DNA from: a virus
Taxonomy: Duplodnaviria; Caudoviricetes
IMG/VR virus record: IMGVR_UViG_3300017757_000140
Location: 1 to 25,149 of that record
Strand: one strand, 5' to 3'
Length of the DNA stretch: 25,149 nucleotides
Shown here: piece after piece, positions 1,036-21,704 of the stretch
How the letters are laid out: the number at the start of each line of letters is the position of its first letter
How positions within the stretch are numbered: position 1 is the first letter of the stretch
The notes under the pieces: model-generated
What the model saw: the letters and a program-made list of their open reading frames with translations, nothing else
The model's database searches: none
What the model was told of the DNA's origin: nothing
Translations under genes and position numbers: made by a program

Positions 1036-2208
1036 ATGCCTAAAGTACCAGAAGAGTGGGGAAATAATTTCTATAAGACTGGATGGCAACCAGGATTAGA
1101 AGTCAATGAACAGACTGGCATGGGCGAAATCACACATGTTGGAACAGACCCACACTACAGAAACAAACTAGATTCCATACTTAAAGAATGGGGATTTGAC
1201 CCTAAACATTACCAGATAGAAGGTAGTGTTCGTGCTTCTAGTTGGAATGTACAACTTAAAGGTGGTGCGACAGAAACCTTTTATGCGTTTAAAGGTATAG
1301 TCAAAAAGAAAAAGCCAGGACATGACAAATATTTTCAAGCCTTGTTTAAACAAGCTAAGAAGAAACCTCCTATAACTAAGAAGTTTAACCCAGGTGACAC
1401 TGCGTTCATGTGGTTTATGAGTGACTGGCAACTTGGAAAAAAAGATTATGGAGTTGAGAACACTATCAACAGATACGACAGGGCGTTACAAGATGGTGTG
1501 AACAGGATTAAAGACCTGCGTAAACTTGGAGTACAAATAGATGAAATCTATATGGTAGGTTTAGGTGACCTCACAGAAAACTGTACGCCTTTTTTCTTTG
1601 AAAGCCAACCACACAATGTTTCTTTGTCACTGATTGAACAATACGCATTAGCAAGGTCAATGATAATGAAGACGATTGATACCTTCCTACCTCACGCACC
1701 TAAGTTAATCTTGGCAGGTGTTCCTGGTAATCATGGTGAGATGTCAAGAACAAGTAAAGGACAAGTATCTACAAACAGATTAGATAACTCTGACACAATG
1801 CACTTACAGATATGTGAAGAGATTATGAAGGCTAACCCAGAAAGATATGGAAAGGTAGAAGTAAATGTGCCTACTGGCTTTCATCAAACGATAATGGTAA
1901 AGGGTAAGACAGTTGCCTTTACGCATGGTCACATGACTGGAGGGGGTAGTGGTAATCCAGAAGCTAAGATTGAGAAGTGGTGGAAGGGTCAAATGTATGG
2001 GTGGCTACCAGTAGGAGATGCAGAGATTTTAGTAACTGCTCATTACCATCACCTAAGAATGAAACAACAAGGTGATAGAACTTGGTTTCAAGCACCATCA
2101 ATAGACCAGAGCATAGACTTTACTGCACAAACTGGACTGTGGTCACACCCTGGAGTCCTGACTTTCACTATAAGTGACAAGGGATGGGATAATTATTGCC
2201 CTTTATAA
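1036..2208 (+). CDS. Calcineurin-like metallophosphoesterase (Mre11/SbcD-like)
   Basis: Motifs SDWQ, GLGD, GNHG, THGH and AHYHH in canonical order; strong SD AAGGAGG at 1024-1030. Confidence 0.85.
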   Translation: MPKVPEEWGNNFYKTGWQPGLEVNEQTGMGEITHVGTDPHYRNKLDSILKEWGFDPKHYQIEGSVRASSWNVQLKGGATETFYAFKGIVKKKKPGHDKYFQALFKQAKKKPPITKKFNPGDTAFMWFMSDWQLGKKDYGVENTINRYDRALQDGVNRIKDLRKLGVQIDEIYMVGLGDLTENCTPFFFESQPHNVSLSLIEQYALARSMIMKTIDTFLPHAPKLILAGVPGNHGEMSRTSKGQVSTNRLDNSDTMHLQICEEIMKANPERYGKVEVNVPTGFHQTIMVKGKTVAFTHGHMTGGGSGNPEAKIEKWWKGQMYGWLPVGDAEILVTAHYHHLRMKQQGDRTWFQAPSIDQSIDFTAQTGLWSHPGVLTFTISDKGWDNYCPL

Positions 2209-2688
2209 ACGATTAAAGGGTAGTTGTTTAAACAACTTAGGGTTACCTTGGAAATCTTTTTCAGGATATGTTCCCCAGTGTTTCATTTCGTTCCACATTT
2301 CTTGTACTTGAACAAATGGTATCCATTTAAAACCTTTATAAAAACTGTTGTAATAATATATACCAACATCTACTTGTTTAAACAACCTAGTCTTTTCGTG
2401 CATTTGATATAGCTTTTGGTAGTCATCTAGCTTTAACTTAGTTGTACCTTTAACTTCACACAATCGTAGTTCGTTTTGAATGTACACTAGGTAGTCTGGA
2501 TTAACTGCTATGAATGTGTACAACCAGAACAGTGGCATCTCATGTTCCCATGGGCTAGTGCCAGTCTTCATCCATTGTTTTTGTTTGACTAACCCTAGTT
2601 GTGTTAGATAGATTTCAAAGTTATCTTCTGCTTCCTTGCCTACTTTATCTTTAACTCTATCTTGATATGGTCTATCGCTTTGTTCCAT
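2203..2688 (-). CDS. PD-(D/E)XK nuclease
   Basis: PDYLV...LCEVKG motif; start placed at MEQ (2688), just behind the upstream stop at 2690; the track start at 2718 is an alternative. Confidence 0.7.
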   Translation of the reverse strand: MEQSDRPYQDRVKDKVGKEAEDNFEIYLTQLGLVKQKQWMKTGTSPWEHEMPLFWLYTFIAVNPDYLVYIQNELRLCEVKGTTKLKLDDYQKLYQMHEKTRLFKQVDVGIYYYNSFYKGFKWIPFVQVQEMWNEMKHWGTYPEKDFQGNPKLFKQLPFNRL

Positions 2689-2689
2689 T

Positions 2690-2986
2690 TTAAAATGGGA
2701 GTTCATCTTGGTCTGCACCTTGGTCTGCTTTTTCTACCAGTGCATGACAAACTCTGTACTCCCACTTGTATATATTGTCATCTTCTACATGCTTGTATCT
2801 TGCTCCACAATATCTATTACCCTCTGCATCTGTATAAAATATATCATTGTCTTTACAAATGAATGGCGACTTGTGTCGTGTATCTGGCTCTGGTTGTATA
2901 TCAAAGTTATAATCTGGATAGCGTTTCTTTAACTTGTCTTTTAACTTATCCAGATTAATTGATATATTGTTATCTTCTAGAGCCAT
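2690..2986 (-). CDS. Hypothetical protein
   Basis: ORF track; overlaps the end of the upstream gene; ends in DELPF, resembling an SSB-like acidic tail. Confidence 0.7.
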   Translation of the reverse strand: MALEDNNISINLDKLKDKLKKRYPDYNFDIQPEPDTRHKSPFICKDNDIFYTDAEGNRYCGARYKHVEDDNIYKWEYRVCHALVEKADQGADQDELPF

Positions 2987-3882
2987 TCTGTTGGGCAGTC
3001 AGTATCTCCCCATCCAGTCCAACCACAACCATTCTTACCACCAGCTGGATACTTGTTACAACTCCAGCTTGGTATCTTACCAAACTTTTCTGGTTCATCT
3101 TGTTTCTTCTGTCTGTTGTCCTCTATCCACTCAGTCGCACCACAATCAGGACAGGCTTTAGTTAGGTCCTTGACTTCTCCAAATACATCCTCAACAATCT
3201 TTACATCAGAAGGTATAGGTTGTTCGTTTGCAATAGATTCAAACAAATCTAAGTACGCTCCAATGGTATCGTTATCCCAACTCTCTACATCTTTACTGTG
3301 TCCTGCTCCAATAAATTCATTAAAAGATTGCTTCTTTACTTCATCTTCTGTAGCTTTAGGCAATCCCCATCCTGCAATTAGCTTGGCTATTTGACTTGCG
3401 TTACTAGAGGTAACTTCTTTATTAACTCCAATGTCTTCATCAAACTTTGCCTTAGCTTCTTCTAAACTAGACAGGCTCTCATCACTAGGTTTGTTTTCTT
3501 TCTTACGATTGTCAACCTTAGTAACTTGTACTTTGTTTTGAGCACCCACTTTAGACATCTCTTCTTTGCTTGGTCTAGCCTTGTTGCTACCTTGGTACTT
3601 CCAGTTAGCCAACGCTCTACCTATCGCACTTGTTTCACAGTTCTCCATCCATGCATCAGCGTTAGCGAATCCACCTTGTCCTTTAGTTTCTTGTGCTATA
3701 CCTGTTGCAACTGGTCGTGCATCTTCTTCCTGTTTAAACACCTCTGCTTTAATAGTGACACAAGTACCATCTTGTGTTATGTGTAGTATCTCTGTAGATA
3801 TTCTTGCATCTGGGTTATCCTTCCAGAATTTTTTTAATCTATCTTCTACTGTTTCATATTTATCTGGGTCGTACTTAGCCAT
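2977..3882 (-). CDS. Sak/Rad52-like ssDNA-annealing protein with C-terminal Zn ribbon
   Basis: YETVEDRL...ATGIAQE...ENCETSAIGRALAN resembles phage Rad52-fold annealing proteins; CPDCG...WSC...GCGW at the C-terminus; SD AGGAGG and TAATG coupling. Confidence 0.7.
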   Translation of the reverse strand: MAKYDPDKYETVEDRLKKFWKDNPDARISTEILHITQDGTCVTIKAEVFKQEEDARPVATGIAQETKGQGGFANADAWMENCETSAIGRALANWKYQGSNKARPSKEEMSKVGAQNKVQVTKVDNRKKENKPSDESLSSLEEAKAKFDEDIGVNKEVTSSNASQIAKLIAGWGLPKATEDEVKKQSFNEFIGAGHSKDVESWDNDTIGAYLDLFESIANEQPIPSDVKIVEDVFGEVKDLTKACPDCGATEWIEDNRQKKQDEPEKFGKIPSWSCNKYPAGGKNGCGWTGWGDTDCPTEWL

Positions 3883-4196
3883 TATTCTTCCTCCTGTTTG
3901 TCTTTGTTAGATTCAATTATCTTATATACTCTTTGTCTACTTACCTTCATAATGTTTGCACACTGTATAACTGATAGCTTCTTTTCTTCTACAATATATT
4001 CTAATAGTCTAGCTCTTTGTAGAGACAGATTCTTTTCAATCTCTCTAGCAGTATTTATTTGTAGTGTTAATGCGTTTATTCTGTCCTCATGTTTACCTTC
4101 TGGTATGTGATGAAACGCCATCTCAACACCATTAGCGTAGGATACCTTGCCCTCTACACCAGTAATATCTTTATCATTAATTGTCTGTAATATCAT
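3882..4196 (-). CDS. Helix-turn-helix DNA-binding protein
   Basis: LSVIQCANIMKVSRQRVYKII is an HTH pattern; start moved to 4196 because SD GAGGAGG precedes it. Confidence 0.75.
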   Translation of the reverse strand: MILQTINDKDITGVEGKVSYANGVEMAFHHIPEGKHEDRINALTLQINTAREIEKNLSLQRARLLEYIVEEKKLSVIQCANIMKVSRQRVYKIIESNKDKQEEE

Positions 4197-4371
4197 AGTC
4201 CTCCTCATAAATATCTATTTGTAACTCATCAATAAAATCTATTGCATCATTGTTTAAACTGATAACCCTCATTGGTTTATTAGTTAGTATGTGTGCAACC
4301 AGTACCAACACTAGAACAATTAAGAATGTTATAGTCGTTAGCATTATTGGTATCCATATAAATAATTCCAT
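4177..4371 (-). CDS. Small single-pass membrane protein
   Basis: About 25 hydrophobic residues at the N-terminus; SD AAGGAGG and TAATG coupling. Confidence 0.75.
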   Translation of the reverse strand: MELFIWIPIMLTTITFLIVLVLVLVAHILTNKPMRVISLNNDAIDFIDELQIDIYEEDYDITDN

Positions 4372-4586
4372 TACTCTTCTTCCTCCTTACTTTCTTCATT
4401 CATAATTACTAACTGTTCATTATAAGCAACTACGAATTCCTCTAGTAATATGTTTGCAACTCTTGGTTCTGGCTTCCTCAACACCTTGGACTTAATAACT
4501 ACTGCTCCTCCACAGGCGTTAGATAAATCCATACTCCACTTCTTTAGATTTTCTGGGGTAAAGAATCCCCCTTTGCCATTTGGCAT
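4371..4586 (-). CDS. Hypothetical protein
   Basis: ORF track; SD AAGGAGG. Confidence 0.75.
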   Translation of the reverse strand: MPNGKGGFFTPENLKKWSMDLSNACGGAVVIKSKVLRKPEPRVANILLEEFVVAYNEQLVIMNEESKEEEE

Positions 4587-4612
4587 ACTTCCTCCTTCTT
4601 ATTGATAGTTGT

Positions 4613-4774
4613 TTAAACTACTTGTTGTTCTATTGGAATCTCAATTAACCTAACGATAAACATACCACCTAAGTCTTTGAGTTCCCTTACCTTGCACTTC
4701 GCATCATGTTCATTGTCGTACTGCCATGTCACAGTACCACCATAAACACTTGTACTTTGTACTTGATAAATCAT
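4613..4774 (-). CDS. Hypothetical 53-aa protein (not in the ORF track)
   Basis: MIYQVQSTSVYGGTVTWQYDNEHDAKCKVRELKDLGGMFIVRLIEIPIEQQVV; SD AGGAG; stop TAA lies inside a GTTTAAAC palindrome. Confidence 0.75.
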   Translation of the reverse strand: MIYQVQSTSVYGGTVTWQYDNEHDAKCKVRELKDLGGMFIVRLIEIPIEQQVV

Positions 4775-4800
4775 AGTTCTCCTATGTAATCTCCTATTTA

Positions 4801-4829
4801 ATCTTAGTCCTTATTTTCTCTATTGTAAA
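4801..4829 (-). promoter_or_regulatory. Sigma70/SigA-type promoter
   Basis: TTTACA-N17-TAAGAT on the minus strand, upstream of the 4774 ORF. Confidence 0.6.
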
Positions 4830-4842
4830 CTACTGTTGAGGT

Positions 4843-4879
4843 ACAAGGTAGAAGTAAACAAAGAAAGCTCCCACCTTGT
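4843..4879 (-). other. Intergenic stem-loop (terminator or processing site)
   Basis: ACAAGGUGGGAG/CUUCUACCUUGU, 12 bp with two G-U pairs that form only on the minus strand. Confidence 0.6.
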
Positions 4880-4895
4880 TTAAACATGTATGTAT

Positions 4896-5117
4896 TTATT
4901 CTCCTTCTCCTCTAAACATATCTTCAAAACATTCTGGATGTACACCAGTTAACAGTTGCTCTCTCTCTGCTCTGCTCTGTTCAGGAAATATATCTTGTAT
5001 CAATCTGCGTTGATGTCTTGGTGTCTGGGTAAACTCAATGTACTTTTCTGAGTCCACCATTACGCTACCTGTCTTCCTACAATGGATACATTCTTTAGTC
5101 GTTACTGCGAACATCAT
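4896..5117 (-). CDS. Small Cys/His putative Zn-binding protein
   Basis: CIHC...QDIFP..SRAEREQLLTGVHPEC; overlaps the upstream gene end. Confidence 0.75.
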   Translation of the reverse strand: MMFAVTTKECIHCRKTGSVMVDSEKYIEFTQTPRHQRRLIQDIFPEQSRAEREQLLTGVHPECFEDMFRGEGE

Positions 5118-5427
5118 TCTGCATCTTCTTTAATATTGTGATTACTCTTTTGTATAAGTCATCATATTTTTTTACCAATACATCTTCAGTATGTTCATCA
5201 CATTTAAACACACCCTCTAACTCCTCTATTATTGTGTCATCTATCAATGATTTATAAAGCTCCATCTTGCTAACTAAATCATTCAAATCATTAACAATGT
5301 TATACGCTTGTGAACTGAATCCATCATGGTCAAATCCACTGTCACTATCATTATCAACTGCGAATGGATACTCTTTACCATTTATAGTAAGAGTTCCCTC
5401 TATCCATATTGTTGGGTGTGCTACCAT
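5095..5427 (-). CDS. Hypothetical acidic protein
   Basis: Start reassigned to MVAHP at 5427 (TAATG coupling, SD GGAGGAGGAG); the track extension to 5532 overlaps another gene. Confidence 0.75.
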   Translation of the reverse strand: MVAHPTIWIEGTLTINGKEYPFAVDNDSDSGFDHDGFSSQAYNIVNDLNDLVSKMELYKSLIDDTIIEELEGVFKCDEHTEDVLVKKYDDLYKRVITILKKMQNDVRSND

Positions 5428-5777
5428 TACTCCTCCTCCTTTACTGTTGACTCGCCTAAAGTTTCTCCATATCCTAATTCTTTTAGCTTGTTTAAACAGT
5501 GCTCTGTATACTCGCCATCTTTTGTTATCCATCCATACTCTACTGTTTCTATGAGTTGTCTTCTCATATCGTAGTTGGCGTCTAGATATTTTCTATAGGC
5601 TTCTAGCTTATGGTTTCTAACTAGGGTTCTCATAAACATAAAGACCTGCTCCATGTTTAAGTGTCCTTGTTTAAACAACCTAGTCATTATTATTAAGTAG
5701 TCATTTGGTTTATGTTGACCTGCATCCATCAAAGATTGATTCACATATCCTTGAAAAGATTTAATTTGATTAGCCAT
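5427..5777 (-). CDS. Hypothetical protein
   Basis: ORF track; SD GAGGAGG and TAATG coupling. Confidence 0.75.
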   Translation of the reverse strand: MANQIKSFQGYVNQSLMDAGQHKPNDYLIIMTRLFKQGHLNMEQVFMFMRTLVRNHKLEAYRKYLDANYDMRRQLIETVEYGWITKDGEYTEHCLNKLKELGYGETLGESTVKEEE

Positions 5778-5980
5778 TACTCATCCTCCTCTAGTAGTTC
5801 TACTTCATCCTTCAGCTCCTCAATAGAAGTCATAAGGTCGTAGAATTTGTTATCAAGTTCGTTGTTATCTTTTAATTTAGAACTGGATAGCATGTGATAT
5901 CCTTGCTCTAAAAAGTCGTAACTACTTTGTACTTCTTTTGTTATCTCACTTACTTTGTTATCTTTTTTATTTATCGCCAT
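5777..5980 (-). CDS. Hypothetical helical protein
   Basis: ORF track; SD AAGGAG immediately preceded by TGTTTAAACA. Confidence 0.75.
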   Translation of the reverse strand: MAINKKDNKVSEITKEVQSSYDFLEQGYHMLSSSKLKDNNELDNKFYDLMTSIEELKDEVELLEEDE

Positions 5981-6002
5981 GTTTACTCCTTGTTTAAACA
6001 GT

Positions 6003-6030
6003 CAGGGAGATGGTGTTGCACATCTCCCTG
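6003..6030. other. Perfect 10-bp intergenic inverted repeat
   Basis: CAGGGAGATG-N8-CATCTCCCTG; no clear U-tract. Confidence 0.65.
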
Positions 6031-6043
6031 CTACTCCTTACTT

Positions 6044-6976
6044 TTATTCCTTCCACTCTAATCTCTGGACATTTCCATGGGAGTGTCTCTCCCAGTAACC
6101 TATCCTTGTATCAGTAGTTCCATCTGTGTAATAGAATGTTGTTGTCCACTGCTTCTTTCTTTTATCTGCTGGGTCTTTACCTTTGCTTCTTACGATACCT
6201 TGTCCTGCTCCATAGCTACCAACACCAGTCTGTAAGTCAGCTACCCTGATACCATTGAAGTTATCATTATCCCAGCCAGACTTGATACCTTCTTCCAGTC
6301 CTGCTAACAATTCTTCTGCGTTATCGTTAGTCCAGTCTTGCGTGAAGTTACCATCCTCATCAGTGTTGAAGTCTTGGTGTACTTCCAGAATATCTGGGTC
6401 AGTAGACTTATTAATTTCTACTGCCTTGTTTAAACTACTATCCCAATAGTATCTACCAGTCTGGCATTTGGTTTGTTCGTACAAACTTGGGAAGTGAGCT
6501 AGTGCATCTGGATGGTCGCACCACTGTCCTCCATATCTTTCTTCAAGTGCTTTGGTTTCTTCCACTACTAACAACATGTCTAAACATTTGTTAGCGAACT
6601 GTATAACTTGTTCTCTGTTCTTGAAACCAATAGAGAAATAAGAATCTTCATAGCTTTTTCTGTTGTTATCACTTCTTGTAGTCTTACAAGCGTAACCATA
6701 TACTTGGACACCCTCTTCGTATCTACTATCTGTTACCTTGACTCGTTGTTTAAACAACTCATCTCTATATGAATGGACACCATTGACATCTACACTTAGA
6801 AAATCTAAGTCAGCATCAAAGTCTACCTCTCTCTTTGGAACATGTACTACTGCACTATGTCCTTTTCTTTCTTTATTACCTGATAGAGACACTGCTTTAT
6901 CAGAAGCGTTATAGATATTTGCATCTGCAATATCTACTGCCTGTCCTTTCGTAATTGTTTCTTTAATCTCACTCAT
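6044..6976 (-). CDS. Hypothetical 310-aa early protein
   Basis: ORF track; SD GAGGT; no family recognised. Confidence 0.8.
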   Translation of the reverse strand: MSEIKETITKGQAVDIADANIYNASDKAVSLSGNKERKGHSAVVHVPKREVDFDADLDFLSVDVNGVHSYRDELFKQRVKVTDSRYEEGVQVYGYACKTTRSDNNRKSYEDSYFSIGFKNREQVIQFANKCLDMLLVVEETKALEERYGGQWCDHPDALAHFPSLYEQTKCQTGRYYWDSSLNKAVEINKSTDPDILEVHQDFNTDEDGNFTQDWTNDNAEELLAGLEEGIKSGWDNDNFNGIRVADLQTGVGSYGAGQGIVRSKGKDPADKRKKQWTTTFYYTDGTTDTRIGYWERHSHGNVQRLEWKE

Positions 6977-7258
6977 TGTTTATCGTACCTCTCTTGTTTG
7001 TTTGTTACCTTCAAGGATTTTGGAGAGAGTTCCTAGGTCTGCGATTAGTTGTTAAGGGCTATCCAGTTATTATCTGGCTACCTTCTCTCTCTCCATCCTC
7101 CTAACTAAAGGAGCCAATGAATATCGTTCATTAACTATTACCTACATTACTACCTATCAGATTTACACAACATCTATTTACAATTATTTTAATAATAGTT
7201 CTTGACTTGTTTAAACACCTATTGATTTTCTCTTTGTTTAAACAGGGTAAGAAATAAC

Positions 7259-7274
7259 ATACTATATATTGTGT
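7259..7274. promoter_or_regulatory. NrdR-box-like site
   Basis: ATACTATATATTGTGT versus consensus acaCwAtATaTwGtgt. Confidence 0.6.
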
Positions 7275-7373
7275 GTCCTTATTTGCTCTGTGTCAATAGT
7301 ATATGACAACTATGGGTGTCAGTTCCACAATCAATATGGTGCTCTTAAATCCTCTGTATCGTGGGCTTAGGCA

Positions 7374-7401
7374 TAAACAAAAACCCCAGATTTCTCTGGG
7401 G
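7374..7401 (-). terminator. Rho-independent terminator after the SprT-like gene
   Basis: CCCCAGA-GAAA-TCTGGGG followed by TTTTTGTTT on the minus strand. Confidence 0.8.
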
Positions 7402-7435
7402 CTCTCGCACACTAGGGGGATAGTGTTATAGTTGT

Positions 7436-8170
7436 TTAAACATAGATGTTAGTAAGAACTGGAGAATCTACATAAGCTCTGTTCATACACACTGGGCAGA
7501 AGAAGTAATCATTCTTGTCTACCACAGATGATGAAAGTCTAAAGATTGTACCTTGACCTTGCTCTATAGATTTCTTAGTTGCTCCATCACATTCTACATC
7601 TGGACAGTAGAGCTTAACCATTCTTGTAGTTTGCTTTCTTTGTACATCAACAAACTTAATATATGGATAGCTCCCAGCTTTCTCTAGCCATGATTGAATC
7701 AGTTCAGTGAACTCCTCTGTTACAGTAGTGGCAGTTGGAATACCTCCCAGTTTAAACACTGAGTAAACTGCATCAACAAATTTACCCTTGTGACCTACAC
7801 CAGCATCTAACACTGCATGACTTACTTCATGGGCAACAATCTGTAAGACCTGAAGTGGGTCGCTGGTCTCTCTATCTATCTCTATTCTTCTTATGCTATT
7901 ACCTTCAGAGTATTCAGTTGAGTAACATAATCCTATTGCTTTACCTTGATTGTGATTACTAGTAGTTTTTCTTCCTCTGGTATTAGATATGTGAACGCTT
8001 AACTTATCTCCTAGATTATCAGTATCTCCAACACCATTCTTGATGGCATACTTCACACACCAGTTAGCGAATGAAGTCAGATAATCTTCAGGAGATTTCT
8101 TACTTACTTTTAACTCACTTACCCATGCTGGATAATCTTTTGCATTCAGTGTTTTTTTCTTAGTAGTCAT
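7436..8170 (-). CDS. SprT-like zinc metalloprotease with C-terminal Zn ribbon
   Basis: HEVSH (HEXXH) followed by GHKGKF; CPDVEC...CPVC; start reassigned to MTTKK (SD GAGGG). Confidence 0.75.
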   Translation of the reverse strand: MTTKKKTLNAKDYPAWVSELKVSKKSPEDYLTSFANWCVKYAIKNGVGDTDNLGDKLSVHISNTRGRKTTSNHNQGKAIGLCYSTEYSEGNSIRRIEIDRETSDPLQVLQIVAHEVSHAVLDAGVGHKGKFVDAVYSVFKLGGIPTATTVTEEFTELIQSWLEKAGSYPYIKFVDVQRKQTTRMVKLYCPDVECDGATKKSIEQGQGTIFRLSSSVVDKNDYFFCPVCMNRAYVDSPVLTNIYV

Positions 8171-8203
8171 TTCGTTTCCCTCTTTCTTTGTTTGTTTGAA
8201 TCT

Positions 8204-8253
8204 TATAAGATTCCTAAAGGGTGCCTGTTTAAACACCCTCCTAGAATATTATA
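8204..8253 (-). other. Long imperfect intergenic stem-loop with TGTTTAAACA at the apex
   Basis: UAUAAUAUUCUAGGAGGGUG-loop-CACCCUUUAGGAAUCUUAUA, about 18 bp with bulges. Confidence 0.55.
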
Positions 8254-8256
8254 ACT

Positions 8257-8646
8257 CTAGCCAGTAGTTACCACCTTGAAGTTATAAGTATCTTTACCTT
8301 CAAAGGATGAAGGAACTGCTGGATTGATGTATCCAACTTCTACCCAGTTTCTTAGGTCTTTCTCTGTAACTGTTCTCATAGCTTGATATGATTCTACATA
8401 ATCAGAATCCACAGTGTATTTGTAATCTATGGATGCTTTCTTAGTCTTGTAGATATAAGCTGGGTAAGTCTCTCCACTAGCAGTTGTAATAGCTATTGGC
8501 ATACCTGCATGGAATTGGCTCATGAATCTTTTCTGTCTCGCATCCTTCTGTTCTCTAACTGAATTAGATAGGACTTCAAGCTCATGGTCATTCAACTCGC
8601 TTAGGTCTCTACTTAGTATTATTCCACTTATTGGTTGGTTAGTCAT
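8257..8646 (-). CDS. Hypothetical protein, first gene of the early block
   Basis: Start reassigned to MTNQP (SD GAGGAG); the track start at 8748 lacks an SD. Confidence 0.75.
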   Translation of the reverse strand: MTNQPISGIILSRDLSELNDHELEVLSNSVREQKDARQKRFMSQFHAGMPIAITTASGETYPAYIYKTKKASIDYKYTVDSDYVESYQAMRTVTEKDLRNWVEVGYINPAVPSSFEGKDTYNFKVVTTG

Positions 8647-8668
8647 TTGGTCTCCTCTTGTTAAGGAC

Positions 8669-8699
8669 CTACTAGATGTAGTACCACTATATGTAGTGG
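8669..8699. promoter_or_regulatory. Tandem NrdR-box-like sites in the leader of the first early gene
   Basis: CTACTAGATGTAGTAC (8669-8684) and CCACTATATGTAGTGG (8684-8699), 15-bp period. Confidence 0.6.
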
Positions 8700-8736
8700 G
8701 TTGGTCTAGAAGGTCTGTATATGTTTGCATGAGTCC

Positions 8737-8762
8737 ATTATAAGACAACCTCTGTTTAAACT
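8737..8762 (-). promoter_or_regulatory. Putative early promoter: TATAAT -10 with GTTTAAAC in the spacer/-35 region
   Basis: Minus-strand TATAAT at 8742-8737; no consensus -35; palindrome at 8754-8761. Confidence 0.45.
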
Positions 8763-8813
8763 GTGTATTTCTTTTAATTATTTTTTCCCACTCTTCCAGC
8801 TTCTTTCTTATTC

Positions 8814-8839
8814 ACTGGATATTAAATACTGGATATTAA
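8814..8839 (+). repeat. 12-bp direct repeat
   Basis: ACTGGATATTAA at 8814-8825 and 8828-8839. Confidence 0.75.
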
Positions 8840-9051
8840 TTAATGGGCTACCCCCTCTTTGTTTAAAATTAATCTGGTACAAACCTAGTCAATACTTATT
8901 CATACCTAGGTAATTGTTTAAACAGTCTTAGTCATACTGAATTATTCTTATACTGGGTACACCAATAATATAGGCATATAACATTGGGGGGGTTCAATCT
9001 GCACCCCATAGTTACAGTTGATGTACCCCTTAGATATATGCTGTTAAGTAG

Positions 9052-10611: not shown

Positions 10612-12523
10612 AAAATTATGTTACGCTGCAGGATGTAAAAGAGTTCTTAGTGGTAAGCGTACAAAATATTGTAGCGATAGATGTGCTAACAGAATACAAA
10701 CACAAAAGAAAAGAGCTAAAGCTAAAGGTGTTGAATGGATTCAAACAGAAGACGAATTAGTTATACCTAGTAAACAAAATGTCCAAAGTCGTAGAGGTGT
10801 AGTTTATAATGACCTCAAAGAATCAGGTTTAGGTAAAGATATACTTAGAGAAAAAACAACTATAAAAGATGTAGCAAAGATACTTGAAACTTCTGTAGCA
10901 GCAGTATCTATGGCGTATCAAGCATACATAGAAGATTTAGAACAAGAAGAAGCAAGAAAGACCTGGGAGTTACCACAGGTAGCAGAGAAATCACTAGAAG
11001 ACTTTAGAAATTTTAGAGACAGATATTTTCAAACAGAAACAGGCGACCCATACGAAACACCAGACTTTCACATCAAATGGATTAATTCTATCTTAGAAGC
11101 AATAGAGCATGGTAATCAGCAAATGATATTATCACCACCACGACATGGTAAAACTGATTTGTTAATACATTTTGCAGTATGGTTAATATGCACAAAACCA
11201 AACATAAGAATATTATGGGTTGGTGGTAACGAAGAGATTTCAAAGAACGCAGTCAGTTCTGTACTTGACCAACTAGAGAGTAACGAATTATTAATAGAAG
11301 AGATATGTGGACCTGGACCTAAGTTTAAACCTACAAGTAGAACTGGTAAGTCTTGGTCACAGAATGGTTTTACTGTTGGTACTCGTACTGTTACTGGTAT
11401 TAAATCTCCTACTATGGTAGGTATTGGTAGAGGTGGTAAAATTTTATCAAGAGACTGTGACATAATTATTGCAGATGACATTGAGGACCACAGTTCTACT
11501 ATGCAACCTGCATCAAGAGATAACACAAGAAACTGGTGGACTACAACATTATCAAGTCGTAAAGAGGAACATACAGCTATGGTTGTAATAGGTTCAAGAC
11601 AACACTATGACGATTTGTATTCACATTTGTTAGACAACGAATCATGGTTAACTATTGTAGAAGAAGCACATGATACTGCTTGTACAAAATCTGATTGGGA
11701 TAATGACGCACATCAAGAGTGTATGTTGTGGGCTAAGAAGAGAACATACAAATGGCTTATGGATAGAAAGAAAGCTGCAGAGACTACAGGTGGTAGAGCA
11801 ATCTATGAGATGGTGTATCTTAATGTAGCTATGCCAGATGGTATGAGTTTATTTGACAGACCAGAGATAGAAGAATGTAGAGACCAAAACAGAGACATAG
11901 GACACATACCAAATAATGTCAGACTTATTGCAGGACTTGACCCTGCGTCAACAGGATACCAAGCTGCGTTTTTGTGGGGGTATGACCAACAGACAGATAA
12001 ACTATTTATGATAGATATGGAGAATAGTTTAGGTGGAGGTATTCCAGTAGCATTAGAAATAATAAAGAGTTGGTTTCAAAAATATAACTTAGCACACTGG
12101 GTTATTGAAGAAAATGGATTTCAAAGAGCGATACGACAAGATAAATCAATTAGAGAGTTCGCAGGTAAGCATGGTATCTTTTTAGAAGGTACGCAAACTT
12201 ATGGTAATAAGCATGACCCAGTATATGGTGTCACAGCTATGAGACCACTGTTTGAACAAAAGCTAATTAATTTACCTTATCGTAGCTTTGAAGCACAAGA
12301 AAAGGTAAACTTATATACAAGTCAGTTAGTATATTTTAGTTCTGCACAAAACAAGAGTAGAAGCGTTGGACAGAAATCTGATTTAGTTATGGCAAGTTGG
12401 TTTCCAATGAAAACAATAAGGCGTTTACAAAAGGAAAGACTTGCTACAATGGGTATGGAATATGAACCTAGCTTTAGTGGATACTCAGGGCTAGACATAG
12501 ATATAGATGTTTGGAGAACATGA
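10601..12523 (+). CDS. terL: Terminase large subunit with N-terminal Zn-finger and HTH extension
   Basis: Walker A SPPRHGKT, Walker B IIIADD, coupling motif IGSR, nuclease motifs GLDPA, IEENGFQ and SDLVMA. Confidence 0.92.
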   Translation: MSDRKLCYAAGCKRVLSGKRTKYCSDRCANRIQTQKKRAKAKGVEWIQTEDELVIPSKQNVQSRRGVVYNDLKESGLGKDILREKTTIKDVAKILETSVAAVSMAYQAYIEDLEQEEARKTWELPQVAEKSLEDFRNFRDRYFQTETGDPYETPDFHIKWINSILEAIEHGNQQMILSPPRHGKTDLLIHFAVWLICTKPNIRILWVGGNEEISKNAVSSVLDQLESNELLIEEICGPGPKFKPTSRTGKSWSQNGFTVGTRTVTGIKSPTMVGIGRGGKILSRDCDIIIADDIEDHSSTMQPASRDNTRNWWTTTLSSRKEEHTAMVVIGSRQHYDDLYSHLLDNESWLTIVEEAHDTACTKSDWDNDAHQECMLWAKKRTYKWLMDRKKAAETTGGRAIYEMVYLNVAMPDGMSLFDRPEIEECRDQNRDIGHIPNNVRLIAGLDPASTGYQAAFLWGYDQQTDKLFMIDMENSLGGGIPVALEIIKSWFQKYNLAHWVIEENGFQRAIRQDKSIREFAGKHGIFLEGTQTYGNKHDPVYGVTAMRPLFEQKLINLPYRSFEAQEKVNLYTSQLVYFSSAQNKSRSVGQKSDLVMASWFPMKTIRRLQKERLATMGMEYEPSFSGYSGLDIDIDVWRT

Positions 12524-14304
12524 AAACAGTTGACGAGCTTTATTCAAGAGTGTATGAACTTAGAGCTATGCACTCAGATTTTGTATCTGATAAAGCAAAC
12601 ATAAGAGCAATCATGAATGGTGGTGCAGATGGATTAAAAGCATTACTAGGTAAAGATATGCGTGATATGGACTACAAACAATTACCAGCACCTAACTTGT
12701 TGATGTCTGCATTAGAAAGATTCGCACAAAAATTAGGAAGAGCCCCAGATTTAAAAGTAGATATATACAATGATAAAGATTCAGAGAGAGCTACTAAGAG
12801 AGCAGAGAAACTAGAGAGAATCGTACATGCGTATGATGATATGCAAAAACTAGAAAAACAACTACCACAAATAGGTAGGTGGTTACCTGGTTATGGTTTT
12901 GCTGTATGGATACTAAAAGAAAAAAAAGATGCTAATGGAATACCATATCCAGTAGCAGAGATAAGAGACCCTTATCTATGTTATCCAGGATACTTTGGCG
13001 TAGACCAACAACCAACAGAGTTGGCTGTAGTACAAAGAGTACCTCATAAAACACTTGCAGAGATGTATCCAAAACACAAAAATGTAATACTTGATGAAGT
13101 AAGTACAGAATATAATACTATGGCGTATGCTTCTAGTTATGATGAAGGATGGGCTAACGCAGATGGTACAGGTAAAGTAGTTGCAGAATATTATGACAAC
13201 GAAGGTACTTATGTGTTCTTACCTGAAAATAGAATAATATTAGATTTCATTCCTAACCCTCTTAAATCAGGACCAAGATTTGTCATAGCAAAGCGTTACA
13301 GCTTTGACCAAATGCAAAGTCAGTTTCATCATGTAATTGGCTTGATGTCAAATATGGCAAAAATCAATGTTCTATCTGTTATTGCTATGGAAGATGCTGT
13401 GTTCACAGAAACCAACATCATTGGCGAGATAGAATCTGGACAATACAGAAAAGGTAGATTCGCTGTCAATTACTTGACACCTGGTTCGCAAGTTAGCAAA
13501 CCAACTAATAATTTGCCTTATCAGTTGTTTCAACAAATAGATAGACTTGAAAGACATTTAAGACTTGGTGCGTCTTATCCAGTATCTGATGATGGACAAA
13601 GTCCTAATGCTTTTGTTACTGGTAGAGGATTAGAAGAACTAGGACAATCAGCATCATTACATGTGAGAGAATATCAAACAGTATTAGTTGATGCACTAGA
13701 AGAAGTAGATGCTAAAAGATTAGAGTGGGATGAGATTATGTATAAAGGTCAAAGAAAACCTATTGCAGGATTTAGAAAAGGAACTGCATTTAAAGAATCT
13801 TATGACCCAGGAACAGATATTGCTGAAATGTACAAGACTAGAAGAGTCTATGGTGTTATGGCAGGATTTGATGAACCACAAAAAATAATAACAGGGCTGC
13901 AACTAAAACAACAAGGCGTAATAGATATGCAAACATTACAAGAAAACCTTGATGGTATAGATAATATATCCCAAGTGCAAAACAGAGTTAACTCTGAAAA
14001 AGCAGAGAATGTATTATTTGAATCATTAATGGCACAAGCTGCACAGGGAGATAGTAAAGCAACTATGGCAGCTATAGAGATAAGAAAAAACCCACAAAAT
14101 ATGTCAGAGATACTTGATAAGTTTTATACACCAGAAGAACCAGAAATGACACCACAAGAAGCTGCTTTAGGTGGTGCAGGTGGACCACAGGTTCCACAAG
14201 GTGAACCAGATATTGCTTCTGTTTTAGCACAACTAGGTGGAGGATTACCACCTGAACAATTAGCAGCAGGACCAGGACTCCCACCAGGAGGACCTCTTGG
14301 CTAA
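12520..14304 (+). CDS. Portal protein (podovirus-like)
   Basis: Follows terL with an ATGA overlap (TTG 12511 is an alternative start); about 595 aa, helical, IRDPYLCYP motif, Pro/Gly/Gln-rich tail. Confidence 0.75.
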   Translation: MKTVDELYSRVYELRAMHSDFVSDKANIRAIMNGGADGLKALLGKDMRDMDYKQLPAPNLLMSALERFAQKLGRAPDLKVDIYNDKDSERATKRAEKLERIVHAYDDMQKLEKQLPQIGRWLPGYGFAVWILKEKKDANGIPYPVAEIRDPYLCYPGYFGVDQQPTELAVVQRVPHKTLAEMYPKHKNVILDEVSTEYNTMAYASSYDEGWANADGTGKVVAEYYDNEGTYVFLPENRIILDFIPNPLKSGPRFVIAKRYSFDQMQSQFHHVIGLMSNMAKINVLSVIAMEDAVFTETNIIGEIESGQYRKGRFAVNYLTPGSQVSKPTNNLPYQLFQQIDRLERHLRLGASYPVSDDGQSPNAFVTGRGLEELGQSASLHVREYQTVLVDALEEVDAKRLEWDEIMYKGQRKPIAGFRKGTAFKESYDPGTDIAEMYKTRRVYGVMAGFDEPQKIITGLQLKQQGVIDMQTLQENLDGIDNISQVQNRVNSEKAENVLFESLMAQAAQGDSKATMAAIEIRKNPQNMSEILDKFYTPEEPEMTPQEAALGGAGGPQVPQGEPDIASVLAQLGGGLPPEQLAAGPGLPPGGPLG

Positions 14305-14533
14305 GAACCCAGCAGATGTCAATGCAAGATTTTTTAATATTATAAACAACGAAGATTGGGATATTCCAGAAATAGAATCTGACTCAACAATGGTTAGAGA
14401 TTTATTTGTACAAGGGGATGTTCCTTTAGGTGCATTTATTTTACCTACACCATTACCTGGTGTATGGTTTAGTATAAGTATGGGGTTTGAAATAGAAGAA
14501 CCAGATGAGGATGATAACAATGCCAGGTGGTAG
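14297..14533 (+). CDS. Small acidic hypothetical protein
   Basis: ORF track; TTG start with SD AGGAGG. Confidence 0.7.
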   Translation: MAKNPADVNARFFNIINNEDWDIPEIESDSTMVRDLFVQGDVPLGAFILPTPLPGVWFSISMGFEIEEPDEDDNNARW

Positions 14534-14855
14534 AAAACCTAAAATAGATGGAGCATATCAAGATGTAGTTTTAAAACCTATACCAGGTTCTGATGAATTT
14601 GGTGGGTACAAACAACAAGAAGAACAGATAGCTGCAGTAGGTCAACCTCCTACAACAGGAGCGTTGCCACAAGGTGGAACACCTATGCAATATACACCAG
14701 AAGATATATTTGCTAAAGGTACTGAAAGGCAAGATGAATCAGGAACATTTGATAGTAACCCACAACAAACAGTTAGTTTGCCAGTAGGTTCAGATACTCA
14801 AATACTTATAGAGTTAATTAAGGAAAAAGCACCAGTAACTACTCAAAGGTTCTAA
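14520..14855 (+). CDS. Hypothetical virion-module protein
   Basis: Start placed at MPGGRKPK (14520); TAATG-coupled to the giant gene. Confidence 0.7.
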   Translation: MPGGRKPKIDGAYQDVVLKPIPGSDEFGGYKQQEEQIAAVGQPPTTGALPQGGTPMQYTPEDIFAKGTERQDESGTFDSNPQQTVSLPVGSDTQILIELIKEKAPVTTQRF

Positions 14856-17800
14856 TGAGCATTTATCATAAATGGAACAAAGACTTCTTTGAGAAACAAA
14901 ACGAAAGTATTGCATATACTAAAAAGAAAGATGCTACTAAAGCTAATACTGATTTAGATGCACTTACTCAAAACTTCCAAGACTTAAAAGATTTAAACTC
15001 ATTAGAAATGGATGAGTTAGTAGTATCAGCAGCAGAGCTAGATGTTACACCAGAACAATATTATGACTTATATAAAACTACTAAACCTATACAAGTTAAT
15101 TTAACTAATGGCAAACCAAATGCTATTACAGATTATCTAAAGAAAGTACAACAAATAGTTCGTGATAACAATAAGATACTAGAACAAACAAGCAAAGATT
15201 TAGGTTACGAAAAAAATAATAAGTTAATGACAGGCACTCTTTTTATGGGTCTTAATAGCATTTTTGATATTCTTCAGAGAGGTGTAGTTAATCAATTAGG
15301 TGTGCCTTATGCACAATACGAAGAACAGATACTTGCTGAAGATGGTCTTACTAGACAAGACATGATTGAGTTTGAAAAAAAAGGTCGTAATGATAATCAA
15401 CAAGAATGGAAAGCAGCAAGTGTAAGAGCAAGAGCATTTTTACTAACCTTAAATAATTATCTTACAACAGCTCCAGAAACTTTATTAAATATCTTTGGTT
15501 TAGATACACCAGTAGATTCTTTAGTTGATGTAGAAGTTAAATCAAAAGCATGGTTAGCTACACAAGGTGTAGTAGATGCTGATGGAGAAGGATATGTTCA
15601 GCAAACTGATATAGAATCTGCTATACAAGCGACAAAAGAAAATACTCTTGATGAGATACGAATACAAGAAAAAGAATTGCAAAGAGACCTTACACAAACA
15701 GAAAAAGCTAGTTTAGCTTTGAATAACTGGTATGACATTATTACAGAAGAAACATCAACAAATCCTTTATTAAATATATTAGGTGAGTCTACACCAGTAG
15801 CAGAAAATAGAAAGTTAAGAGAAGGTTATGAAAAAGCACAAATATCTTCCAACATAGGAGATTTTGCTAGTTACTTAGTTACAGGAAATATGCCAGGTAG
15901 ATATTCACCTGAAAATGTAATGTATGAAGAAACGCAAGAACTATACGATTTAAAAGTATTACAAGCAGAACAAGCATTTGATACAGGTCAAATATCTATT
16001 ACACAAAAAAATGAACTTGTTGATAAATTAGAAGATGAAAGAGATGAAGAATTAACTAAGGTAGCATTTGACCCTAACAGAGGTATAGCAGGAATTATGG
16101 GTGGTGCTATGAATTTAGTTGGTATGTATTACACAGACCCAGTTGTTATGTTTGCTAAGGGTGTAGGAATAGCAGGTAAAGTTCCAGAGAAATTTGATGA
16201 AGTACTTGCTGGTGCACAAAAAGAAATGAAACGATTTATTGACGAAGGTGGAACTGTAGCTGATTTTTGGCAAAACAATGACGAAATACTAGATGGTTTA
16301 TCTACTGTTCTTGTAGAAGCTAACAATGCAAATCAACCTACATTTTTAAATATGATTAACGCAGGATTTAATCATAAGTTTGCAAAGACTGTAGCTGATG
16401 CAGTTGACCCTGCAATTATTAAAGAAGGTCTTATAGATGGATTTAATAATGGTTATGTATCAGATATGGTGTTTGGAAAATCTTCGCTAGGTAAAACAGG
16501 TCAATTTAGAATACAATCAAAAGTAATATCAGATAATTTAATTACCACATTTGGAGCAAAAGATATAGACAACAGTATTACTGCAACTGGAAATAAAGTA
16601 TTAGGTTCTACAGTAAAAGAAATGGTGAATGGTACAGATATAAGATTGCCTAATCGTGGACAAGTAGATTTAAGAAACATACAAGAAGCTGTAGTAATGT
16701 TTGCAAGAGTTGGAAATGTTTTTAAAGTTCCACAATCTCGTTTAAACAAGTTGCTAATAGATTTTTATAATGCAGCAGACGAAGGTCTGTATACAAAAGC
16801 ACAAGATATTTATTATGATGGTTTGCTTAGAACAGAGGGTGCATTACAACTTAGATATTTGTATGGATTATCAGATGGAGAAATAACAGAGTTTTTTGGA
16901 AACATGAAACAAGGTCCAAGAATGTTCAGTGATGATGTAGGAGATTTTTTAACACCATCAAGAACAAATGAGTTTTACCCTGTAGATGAAATAGATATTC
17001 TTACAAAAAGACAATTTAGTGGGCAAGTAGAAGGTATAGAAATACCACAAGAATTTACAAAAAACTCTATAGAACTTATAAATCAATTTAGAGGCTATAG
17101 CATAGAGATACCAGATGTAGTAGGAATAATTAAAACTACATCACAAAGAAGAAGATTAAGAGCTAAAGCATTAATTGAAAAAGAAGGTATTGATAAAGTA
17201 TTTGATAAAGCTAGAAAAGCATTTGAAGATGGTAAACGAGGAACCTTTTGGGATGAAGAGACTCCTATGGGTGCAGAGATAGCAGCTATTTCTAAAGGTC
17301 TAGGAGACCCAGGAATATTGTTTAAAGGTCAAGAAAAGATTTTGTCATCTATAGAAAAAGGAACATTTGGATTAGTAAGAGGTGTATTTTATCCACTACA
17401 GTTGCTAGGTAGATTTTCTTATCCAGCAAAACTAACAGTAGATGGACACATAAGAGCATCTTTACTAGGTGTTAGGTCTGCATTTAGAAGCCCTTTAAAA
17501 TTTCTTAGGTTCTTATTAAATGATGCAAATGGTGCATTAGCTAGAGCATTAGGATACACACCAGAAACATCTCTAGTTGGTCCATATAAAATAACTAGAC
17601 CATTGGAATTTCAAAATAAAAGTTTACAAGGATTGAATGAAAAATTACCTATGCCTGTAAGGAAAGCATTAGGTGTTCTACAAGACAGTGCAGAATATGG
17701 TATACCAGAATTACAGTCGTTGTCATCTGCTTCACCAACATTTGCGTTTGGTAGAAGATTCCCAGATACTGGTTATGACTTAATTAATAAAGTAGGAACA

Positions 17801-20800
17801 AAAAATGTTCCTATGCCTGATGGCGTGTTAGATTTTAAATTGTCAGATGAGTATATAGAAGCTGTACAAGAATATTTCTTTGAATATATTGATGATGATT
17901 TATCTATGATTACAGCAGCATTAATGAAACAGGGTTTAGATTACACAGATATTGCTAAGTTTTACCAAGAGACTCCTTCAGTACAAGCAATTATAGAACA
18001 AGCAAACAAAATGATGCAGTCAAGAAATGTGTATTCAAGAGGAACGCTACCTATTGCGTATAAGACAGAAGACTTTGATGAGTTAGCTAAACATTATGTA
18101 CAAAGCATAAACAATATGACTGGTGGAAGTGCAGATATGATAGATATTATTGCTACAGGTAAAGTAGGAAGAGTTGATTTGCGTAGTCCAGATTCTATGA
18201 CACCAGAAAACCTAGCTATTTATAATGCAAAAATGAAAAAACTTACACTTAAAAATCAAGCTAATATGCCTAATCAAATGCCAAAACAGAAACCAGAATT
18301 AGATGAAAGAACTGCATTTCAAAAAGGATTAGACTCTTTGTTTTTTGCTACTGCACAAATGGAAGCTGATTTAATTAGAGTACCTTTGTTTAAACAAGGT
18401 TACGAACATTTTATAGAAGCAGGTATACCATTTACTTCTAAACAAGGTCTTAATAAAATAATGAATGCACATAAAGACCCAGAGTCTCCTATAAAACTTA
18501 GTGATGAAATATTTAAATCAGTTCAAGAAGAATATAATGCTATTAAAAATTTAGCACCTGATTTAGCTGTAACAGAAAGAACTGTACCAGTTAAAGTATT
18601 TGATAATGGTGACTCGTTATCCATAATTGCTTATAGTGATAATGGACAAAAACAAATTACATCATTAAAAAGATTAGATACATTTAATAATGAACTGACT
18701 TTTGATTTAAACTTATACAACACAGAACTTAAAGTATTTAAAAAACAATCTGCTGTAGCTGATTACAGATTAGGTGATGATGGTGATGCTATAGGTGTAT
18801 ATAATTTTTCTGTTAATAAATCAGAAGCTATTATTAATGGTTCTATACCAAATAGAGATGCACTTGTTAGAGCAGTAACTAATGCACTTGATGAGAGCGT
18901 AGATGCAGAAGCATTAGTAGATAATGCTATAGAGTATTTAGCTAGTAGTCAGGGTAAGTTTGATAAAACAATAACTAAACAAGAATTGTTTGAAGTTCTA
19001 GGTATAGATGGTTCTACACCTAATGTTGTTGGATTAAAAGTAAAATTACAAAAAGGTAAGACAACTAAAAAAGTTAAAAATACACAAGGTGAAATAACAC
19101 ATGATGTAGGTGTTACTACATTAAATAGAGTATTAGGTAAGAAAATAGCAAGACCAATACTTAGAAAAAAAGCAGATGTAGAAGATGCTATAGATAGAGC
19201 ATACGAATACATAAATGCTAATCCACAAGGATGGAGTATAGATTTAGGCAGAAAAAATAATACAAACATACCTGGTTATTATGTTTCACCATATAAAACT
19301 AGAGAGTTAATATTAGATACTCCTGTAACAAGAAAACAAATAGAAAAATTTATTACTAAGAATAAAACATTGTTAAAGAAAGAAGACCATGTATTGGGTG
19401 GTTGGATAGAAAATAACAAATTGTATTTAGATGTTTCTGTAAAAATTAAAAAGGGTGTTGCTGCACAAGTAATAGATGGAACAGATGAAGCACTTGCTAA
19501 AGCACAATACATAGCGATACTAGCAGACCAAAAAGCCATAGGTAATATAACTACTGCTGGTTATCAAGGAGCTATACCTAGCAATACTGCAGGAGCATTT
19601 GATGTTATAAGAAGAGCAGGTCAAGATTTACTTATAGGTTCTAACAAAAAAATACTGAAGCCTAATAAAGCTATCACCTCTCCAAGAGCAGGAGCAGTTA
19701 TTGGTAATGATGTATTACAAGCTGCAGGAATTAGAGCGATTGTAGATGAAAAAGCAGGTATTGTTAAGATATTAAAACCACAAACTAATCCAATTTTAAA
19801 TGAAAAAACATTTAGTGGAGACTATCAATCTATGTTAGATTTGTCAGATATAAAATCTGCATCTACACCAAGAGTTATGTCTATGGAAGATTTACATGAA
19901 AGAGCTGTGGAGTATGCTTTTGAGTTACACTCTAGGTTATTATATAACCTAACAGAACGAGGGTTTTTCTCACAAGCATATAGAGTAGGCTTTGCTTTCT
20001 TTGAAGCATGGCGAGAAGTGTTAGGTAGATATTACAACCTAGGTTTAGCTAATCCTAAAGCAATAGGACAAATAGGATTTGGTTACAGAAAAGGTATAGA
20101 ACATAACTTTATATACGAAGACCCTTCTGGGGAAAAGTACTTAATAGTACCAGTAGGTGGAACACCATTTGAAGATTATGTAAAGACTGAAGGTAGAGGT
20201 GCGTTTACTGATGATATGTCACTTGCTGATTCTAAGATTATTGCTAAAAGAGGAATACCACTTAGTGCATTAAATGTTGGTGGTGGAGGATTATTCCCAC
20301 CAGTAGGACCTGCAATAGCATTACCTGTAGGTGTTTTAGTTAAGGATAAACCTAAAGCTAAAAAGAATTTAGAAAAATATGTATTTGGTGGATTTGAACT
20401 AACAGGTGCAAGGTATGATTCGCTAGAAGATATTCCAGGAATATTATTAGAAACTACAATACCATCAGTTGGTAAGAACCTTTTAAATCAACTTGCTACA
20501 AATTTAGATACACAAGGTTTAGATGAGGACCAATGGTTATCAGCTATAAACACTGGGTATCAAGTAGCAGGTATATTAAGACCAGATTTAGCAGATGACC
20601 AACAAGCATTAGAAACTGTTGCTATGACATTAGCAGCTAACTTCTTTCAACTTAAAGCATGGGATAGATTTGTAAACCCATTCATACCAAGGCTATCTAT
20701 TATGTACGCAATAGAAGGTAACGAAGTTGCATTTGGAGAATGGTATGGAACTAAAGGTGAAGATAGTGGATTAGTGTACAACAACTTTGTAGAGCTTTCT

Positions 20801-21703: not shown

Positions 21704-21704
21704 T

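Follow-up and report, generated by a model that had tools for sequence, protein, structure and literature searches.

The early region of a marine phage is studded with copies of an 8-bp palindrome, GTTTAAAC, which is probably the operator of a repressor that the phage itself encodes. The phage (Duplodnaviria; Caudoviricetes) is represented by positions 1 to 25,149 of IMG/VR virus record IMGVR_UViG_3300017757_000140, and this whole stretch of 25,149 nucleotides is referred to as the window. The word is very probably read by a SprT-like zinc metalloprotease with a C-terminal zinc ribbon, the product of the gene at 7436-8170, and the array would work in the manner of mycobacteriophage stoperators. 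A selected multi-site protein-binding array of this kind had been put forward in a preliminary description of the window, and is supported here, with binding as its predicted part.

The word occurs 23 times in the window, 19 times within 1344-8923 and 4 times later, and a recount returned the same copies and coordinates as the preliminary description.

1344-8923, no strand: dense early GTTTAAAC block of 19 exact sites, 10 in coding sequences (two frames), 2 on stop codons and 7 intergenic
Early site starts, first ten: 1344, 2226, 2376, 3732, 4252, 4611, 4878, 5490, 5669, 5992
Early site starts, last nine: 6428, 6748, 7209, 7236, 7434, 7750, 8227, 8754, 8916
11323-22449, no strand: four sparse late GTTTAAAC sites, starting at 11323, 16740, 18388 and 22442, all in coding sequences

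The density peak described at 4.2-8.9 kb holds, with 15 of the 19 early sites in that interval and a median gap of 341 bp. The word is exact, because its one-mismatch neighbours in the early block are at chance (4 against 5.3 expected) and 19 of the 23 early TTTAAA hexamers, against 4 of the 29 late ones, are embedded in GTTTAAAC. A longer form, TGTTTAAACA, has 15 copies in the window, 14 of them early, compared with a mean of 0.07 in 100 dinucleotide shuffles (largest shuffle 1), and a 16-bp palindrome lies at 2222. In the flank profile the 8-mer is the constant part and the T/A flanks are only preferred, which corrects the preliminary description. The contrast drawn with a purge of short palindromes was confirmed. 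Seven of the 16 four-base palindromes (ACGT, CCGG, CGCG, GATC, GCGC, GGCC and TCGA) have zero occurrences in the window, and 40-41 of the 64 six-base palindromes are missing in each half, which is a strong purge.

Selection acts on the DNA itself. Ten early copies lie wholly in coding sequences where synonymous-codon shuffling predicts 0.78 (0 of 3000 shuffles reach 10), and all 10 early peptide contexts that permit GTTTAAAC use it, which bears out the DNA-level selection suggested earlier. A codon or composition artefact as the source of the array is ruled out by the dinucleotide and synonymous shuffles and by array-less records; in whole records, the coding opportunities used are 18/24 and 18/32 where the array is present, against 1/14, 1/17 and 0/11 where it is absent. 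Conservation among relatives, a check that had been proposed, was found when it was run: the site in the exonuclease gene is retained in all 17 array-bearing loci covering that place, although the peptide varies, and all 4 distinct array-less records encode the exonuclease LFKQ with a TTA codon, abolishing the site.

The array spans the whole genome and is densely packed in its early part, because the late copies exceed chance (4 against 0.75, P = 0.003 under the codon-preserving null; 4 of 9 opportunities used) and the near-identical record G001 (40.5 kb, 99% complete) holds 31 sites, 19 early and 12 others, with a largest gap of 5.4 kb. This amends the preliminary description, in which the density stops abruptly at the divergent region. 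The window belongs to a phage of roughly 41 kb from seawater and viral metagenomes, in which the early operon runs leftward and TerL and the virion genes run rightward; its closest cultured TerL relatives are Streptomyces phages, at 24% identity. RNA contigs overlap patches of the early region, with neither strand nor level readable from them.

The inferred reader is encoded within the densest part of the array, by a gene that the preliminary description did not name.

7436-8170, minus strand: SprT-like zinc metalloprotease with C-terminal Cys4 zinc ribbon, 244 amino acids, predicted reader of the array
7817-7831, minus strand: HEVSH (HEXXH) metalloprotease motif, intact, from sequence and alignment
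7487-7636, minus strand: zinc ribbon K179-C228, KQTTRMVK..C....C...R.S...CPVC, predicted DNA-reading domain

The gene is flanked by GTTTAAAC at 8227 and 7434, with another copy inside at 7750. Conserved ribbon residues are Q180, T182, R183, K186 and a later arginine, and the ribbon is also found alone, as proteins of about 55 amino acids. PF10263 matches 26 of 48 aligned family members, the window protein itself being without a match; HEXXH is intact in the marine family. The predicted structure has a predicted local distance difference test (pLDDT) score of 89.7. Its best matches among solved folds are weak (E 0.02-0.16) and include abylysin 4JIU, IrrE (E 0.05), SPRTN 6MDW (E 0.066) and CapP (E 0.16), while named viral fold matches are mostly SprT-like, with a top E of 2e-12. 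A sequence search for solved relatives of the ribbon returned none (best E 0.12), and DNA binding by the ribbon is predicted from its co-occurrence with the sites and its conserved basic and polar residues, not from its fold. Ribbon matches comprise 1,266 clusters (50% identity) and 164 cultured-phage records. A homologue of the SprT-like protein is also present on 74 plasmids, mostly from sphingomonads.

Gene and array travel together. TerL relatives were compared at the 24 of 77 fetched loci with at least 2.9 kb upstream of TerL; the SprT-like gene is present in 11/11 array-bearing and 1/13 array-less loci, 4 of these 13 being possibly too short to reveal it. Among loci fetched through the gene itself (38 of the 40 returned, two duplicates or partials having been removed), 35 have sites, and 2 of the 3 exceptions have a degenerate ribbon. 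The SprT-like gene alone, among 14 early window genes, is in 15/15 array-bearing and 0/5 array-less loci; as 14 of those 15 were chosen by this gene, only its absences and the result for a helix-turn-helix (HTH) gene, given below, are informative. A set of 79 loci is free of this circularity because they were picked by the DNA word alone, and here the ribbon is found in 29 of 40 loci with at least 10 sites and in none of 27 site-poor loci of at least 8 kb.

The pairing extends to distant homologues. Together, 126 loci, 80 of them viral (the best 80 of 588) and 46 on genome contigs, contain 426 copies of GTTTAAAC where 12.5 are expected and 123 of the variant GTTTACAC/GTGTAAAC where 15.6 are expected, with 11 control octamers at 0.4-1.9-fold. 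Taken singly, 74 of these loci show enrichment and 9 are without any site. Unrelated siphoviruses, myoviruses and prophages show the pairing, with hosts of several phyla and 30-70% GC. Of the 60 GTTTAAAC copies in five bacterial genomes (5.5-9.5 Mb), 51 fall within the 40 kb surrounding the gene; the word is therefore not one that the host uses. There is further homology, spanning both protease and ribbon, between the window protein and the SprT-like protease of actinophages in clusters AZ (Arthrobacter) and EH (Microbacterium) (E 1e-10, about 27% identity; 99.9% by profile comparison), and the AZ/EH phages Yang, Liebe, Emotion and Percival have 16-20 sites per genome.

Among these loci, L044 and L051 carry array and SprT gene nested within an otherwise array-less TerL clade, which suggests that the early module moved as a block. 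The 20%-GC contig of L160 and L161 has 16 GTTTAAAC and no ribbon hit, for which composition or another reader is possible. Some array-less relatives (L246 8751-10423, L245 and L244 6830) repeat GGTCAC-N10-GTGACC hairpins at early gene junctions, with GTACAAAC or GTACGAAC in the loops.

Sites disappear with the ribbon. Enrichment is found in 96 of 129 loci with Q[TSGAN][TV]RxxK and 5 of 23 without it, the rows being related by kinship. Where the ribbon is changed or absent and HEXXH is intact, there are 0 sites (Armstrong, Quenya, Epa43, marine L245 and L246) or 1 (CN1, of which 40.6 of 59.8 kb was counted); near the six Q[GS]CR ribbons there is no GTTTAAAC. Ribbon-only forms of 55 amino acids and HEXXH-less forms keep dense arrays. 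The ribbon, rather than the catalytic motif, is what matters for sites. Protease-less forms have a median of 2.45-2.65 sites per kb against 0.64, a comparison confounded by kinship and locus selection. These arrays, about four-fold denser than those of intact proteases, are in two groups, the ribbon-only and HEXXH-less forms: L099, L100, L113, L137 and L154, and L101, L102, L123, L131, L134, L136, L144, L146, L159 and L170.

No significant replacement word was found upstream of TerL in array-less loci among 19 examined, nor in the 6 Q[GS]CR-ribbon loci or 2 EB phages. By inspection, no single ribbon residue explains the choice of GTTTAAAC or GTTTACAC, and several elements hold both. The Q[GS]CR loci L317, L325 and L337 show locally clustered direct repeats of TTACCGAT, which are iteron-like and form no dispersed array, and the genome-contig locus L357, with a divergent ribbon, has GTGTACAC five times, a possible third word.

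The position of one site relative to a promoter-like sequence bears on function.

8737-8761, minus strand: early promoter-like element, with the site 8754-8761 at about -31 to -24 of TATAAT (8742-8737)

The marine family has a site at about -31 to -24 of TAnnnT in 22/30 loci, compared with 4/399 downstream sites, and its promoter-like element has no canonical -35 at 17 bp. Among cultured phages, 8 of 9 with an intact ribbon and 0 of 3 with a defective one have a site on promoter-like sequence just ahead of the gene. The first base of this overlapping site is at -32, -8, -6, -5 or +2; the site adjoins or lies on the -10 in Yang, Liebe, Emotion and Percival, lies on the -35 in LazerLemon, and is at +2 in Persinger, PT1 and ep3. 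In Streptomyces prophages, sites occupy the spacer or lie immediately above the -35, and in genome contigs 44 of 200 sites overlap promoter-like sequences against 6.2 in controls. Operator positions wander over the promoter core and those of activator sites do not; because the position varies between lineages here, the sites are operator-like. A Sigma-B/SigF-type promoter, for which the pattern is GTTT..GGGTA, was considered and rejected, as the flank profile has no GGGTA-like partner at a fixed spacing.

The AZ/EH phages connect the sites with immunity. Cluster AZ phages formed immune lysogens, and their repressor is reported as not identified (PMC8758107). According to a preprint (bioRxiv 2025.05.26.655371), the phage Liebe, frameshifted in the SprT-like gene, makes clear plaques and Maureen makes turbid ones; the SprT-like protease gp46 of Lizalica is among four repressor candidates; the AZ/EH protease is predicted to have an SPRTN-like function, with 4JIU as best PDB match; and 'repeat sequences (data not shown)' are mentioned. 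The window protein has the same best PDB match. The available text of that study names no binding site, and the GTTTACAC sites and their promoter placement come from the present analysis.

In the proposed mechanism, incoming DNA would be unoccupied and the early promoter would fire, with the SprT-like protein among the first products. Its ribbons, probably paired on the palindrome, would bind the promoter site in negative autoregulation, and ribbons on downstream sites would form elongation roadblocks like stoperators, damping the early operon. The same protein may be the immunity repressor of temperate relatives. The HEXXH domain is dispensable for site persistence and may provide an off-switch by DNA-activated self-cleavage, by analogy with SPRTN or CapP. 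In integrase-less phages the repressor may serve timing or a carrier state, comparable to the burst of establishment genes permitted by Reg576. As a whole, these steps would form an undescribed and widespread one-chain switch, in which the ribbon of an SPRTN-like protease reads GT(T/G)TA(A/C)AC, represses, places roadblocks every 0.3-4 kb and releases itself through its DNA-activated protease; that this switch is both the missing AZ/EH immunity repressor and the early-gene shut-off of integrase-less marine phages is offered tentatively.

Comparison with known systems places the array closest to the stoperators. Cluster A mycobacteriophages, with an L5 gp71-type repressor, have more than 20 genome-wide sites, some on promoters and others at gene junctions (PMC9283540), and the array likewise has more than 20 spread sites (31 in the near-identical complete record, one at a promoter-like element). 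Bound cluster A sites block both initiation and elongation, an effect that is predicted for the array as well. The cluster A site is an asymmetric 13-bp sequence oriented with transcription, whereas here it is an 8-bp palindrome or near-palindrome with many copies within coding sequences, and a stoperator-like strand bias is confined to the GTTTACAC variant of AZ/EH phages. The cluster A repressor has HTH and Stoperator domains, whereas the predicted reader here is a Cys4 ribbon on a metalloprotease. Cluster A phages are temperate with an integrase, whereas here the word is nearly constant across phyla and is also present in integrase-less phages. The array most likely works like a stoperator system, yet stands outside that family in site, protein and lifestyle.

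The protein has likenesses of its own. HEVSH and a SprT-like fold agree with the SprT-like metalloprotease family, with DNA-stimulated proteolysis putative here. SPRTN/Spartan (6MDW, E 0.066) likewise combines a SprT HEXXH domain with a zinc-binding domain behind it; SPRTN is not known to be sequence-specific, whereas here a fixed octamer tracks the ribbon. In CapP-CapH and IrrE-DdrO, a zinc metallopeptidase is coupled to a repressor, and IrrE and CapP are among the weak fold hits. There the peptidase and the HTH repressor are two proteins (bioRxiv 2022.04.27.489752), whereas here peptidase and predicted DNA reader are one chain with putative cleavage, and no HTH gene accompanies the array and its SprT gene as a separate repressor. 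Reg576 is an autoregulated repressor that permits a burst of plasmid establishment genes after DNA entry (PMC6294495), the logic proposed here for an integrase-less phage; it differs in being a ribbon-helix-helix protein with four promoters only and, in the text available, no genome-wide array. Among publications judged at listing level, no description of a GTTTAAAC, TGTTTAAACA or GTTTACAC site or of a SprT-linked operator was found. New here are the promoter overlap, the host-chromosome control, the residue-level loss, the even spacing and the AZ/EH link.

The spacing of the sites also suits a different role, which is considered unlikely. The ribbon would anchor an SPRTN-like protease at intervals on the phage genome, and the protease would cut or dislodge host proteins there (silencers, restriction or defence complexes, DNA-protein crosslinks); protease-dead and ribbon-only forms would shield the DNA by occupancy. 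Sites are evener than random across genomes, with a coefficient of variation of the gaps of 0.36 in R26L, 0.44 in Yang, 0.46 in Percival and 0.57 in LazerLemon (P<=0.0004; largest gaps 3.8-6.1 kb), and this includes integrase-less phages. Such spacing does not fit the earlier idea that the array marks first-injected DNA. Protection would also agree with the intact HEXXH of the marine family, the denser (confounded) arrays of protease-less forms and the presence of SPRTN among the weak fold hits. It does not predict a site on the protein's own promoter, the clear-plaque mutant or the strand bias of GTTTACAC, which in Yang, Liebe, Emotion and Percival is on the coding strand in 49 cases against 19; moreover, stoperator-like roadblocks likewise yield spread-out sites.

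It is improbable that the SprT-like protein instead activates early or middle promoters. T4 MotA is an activator acting from near -30, and the fixed marine-family position, with no canonical -35 at 17 bp, would suit a MotA-type box. Across lineages the position is variable, with sites on the -10, the -35, the spacer or +2 to +9; the promoter concerned precedes the SprT-like gene itself, and the sites inside coding sequences are left unexplained.

Equally improbable is a reader elsewhere, whether host protein, virion protein or HTH gene, with the SprT gene a passenger in the early module. The TerL family does move gene and array as one early block, and some array loci are without a ribbon, but the pairing recurs across unrelated phages and prophages of several phyla, and sites vanish with ribbon residues.

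3882-4196, minus strand: weak HTH-like gene, distributed independently of the array and outside the system

This HTH gene was rejected as reader, being present in 10/15 array-bearing relatives, missing from the other 5/15, and present in 3/5 array-less ones. A virion protein is disfavoured as array-less relatives retain the same virion genes. A host factor is unlikely given chromosomes nearly without the word outside the element and hosts of several phyla; the suggestion of a parS/matS-type host motif likewise finds no backing in the five genomes, the phage's own host not among them, where 9/60 copies lie outside the element. As to virion genes, the window encodes at 14855-21703 a 2282-amino-acid protein, likely an internal virion protein, with a homologue of 29-34% identity in array-less relatives and no Pfam or PHROG match.

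That the word acts in RNA, in translational control or processing at gene starts with the ribbon on mRNA, is the least credible reading: 59 of 233 non-redundant intergenic sites in marine loci L211-L248 lie between Shine-Dalgarno and start codon, others are in hairpin loops and GTTTACAC is strand-biased, but sites upstream of -10 elements are untranscribed, LazerLemon has both orientations (16 and 24), and a compact genome has no cheaper free sequence than the Shine-Dalgarno-start spacer.

Several results weigh against the SprT-zinc-ribbon protein as a repressor that reads GTTTAAAC as its operator. The overlap of sites with promoter-like sequences does not exceed that of controls in the marine family (91/421 against 92), the window (4/23 against 5.2) or the 80 viral loci (35/358 against 27.7 +/- 6.3). 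Of the 108 distant loci, only 18 place a site in the 250 bp before the gene. LazerLemon and R26L, with 41 and 21 evenly spaced sites, have no PF00239 or PF00589 integrase, so prophage silencing does not account for those sites, and neither family has a match in G001, the near-identical 99%-complete record. The array and gene label switches only twice on the TerL tree. Eleven of the 40 word-fetched array loci, fragments of 4.6-14.8 kb, are without the ribbon, 33 of 129 intact-ribbon loci show no enrichment, and the QTTRNIK ribbon of L244 goes with zero sites in 9.2 kb. Foldseek gave the ribbon model no significant match to a known DNA reader (best E 1.0), its insignificant hits being chains of Streptomyces RNA polymerase complexes and ribosomes. 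Liebe and Maureen are a single pair with three other changes, and the shortened Liebe product retains HEXXH and ribbon.

Under the operator reading, a large phage and prophage family annotated only as 'SprT-like protease' acquires a binding site and a likely function. It also provides a candidate for a published open question, the repressor of temperate AZ/EH actinophages, that is testable in isolated phages. If the protease is the off-switch, the protein would unite repressor and protease in a single chain, independent of RecA, and would be a relative of SPRTN that recognises a sequence.

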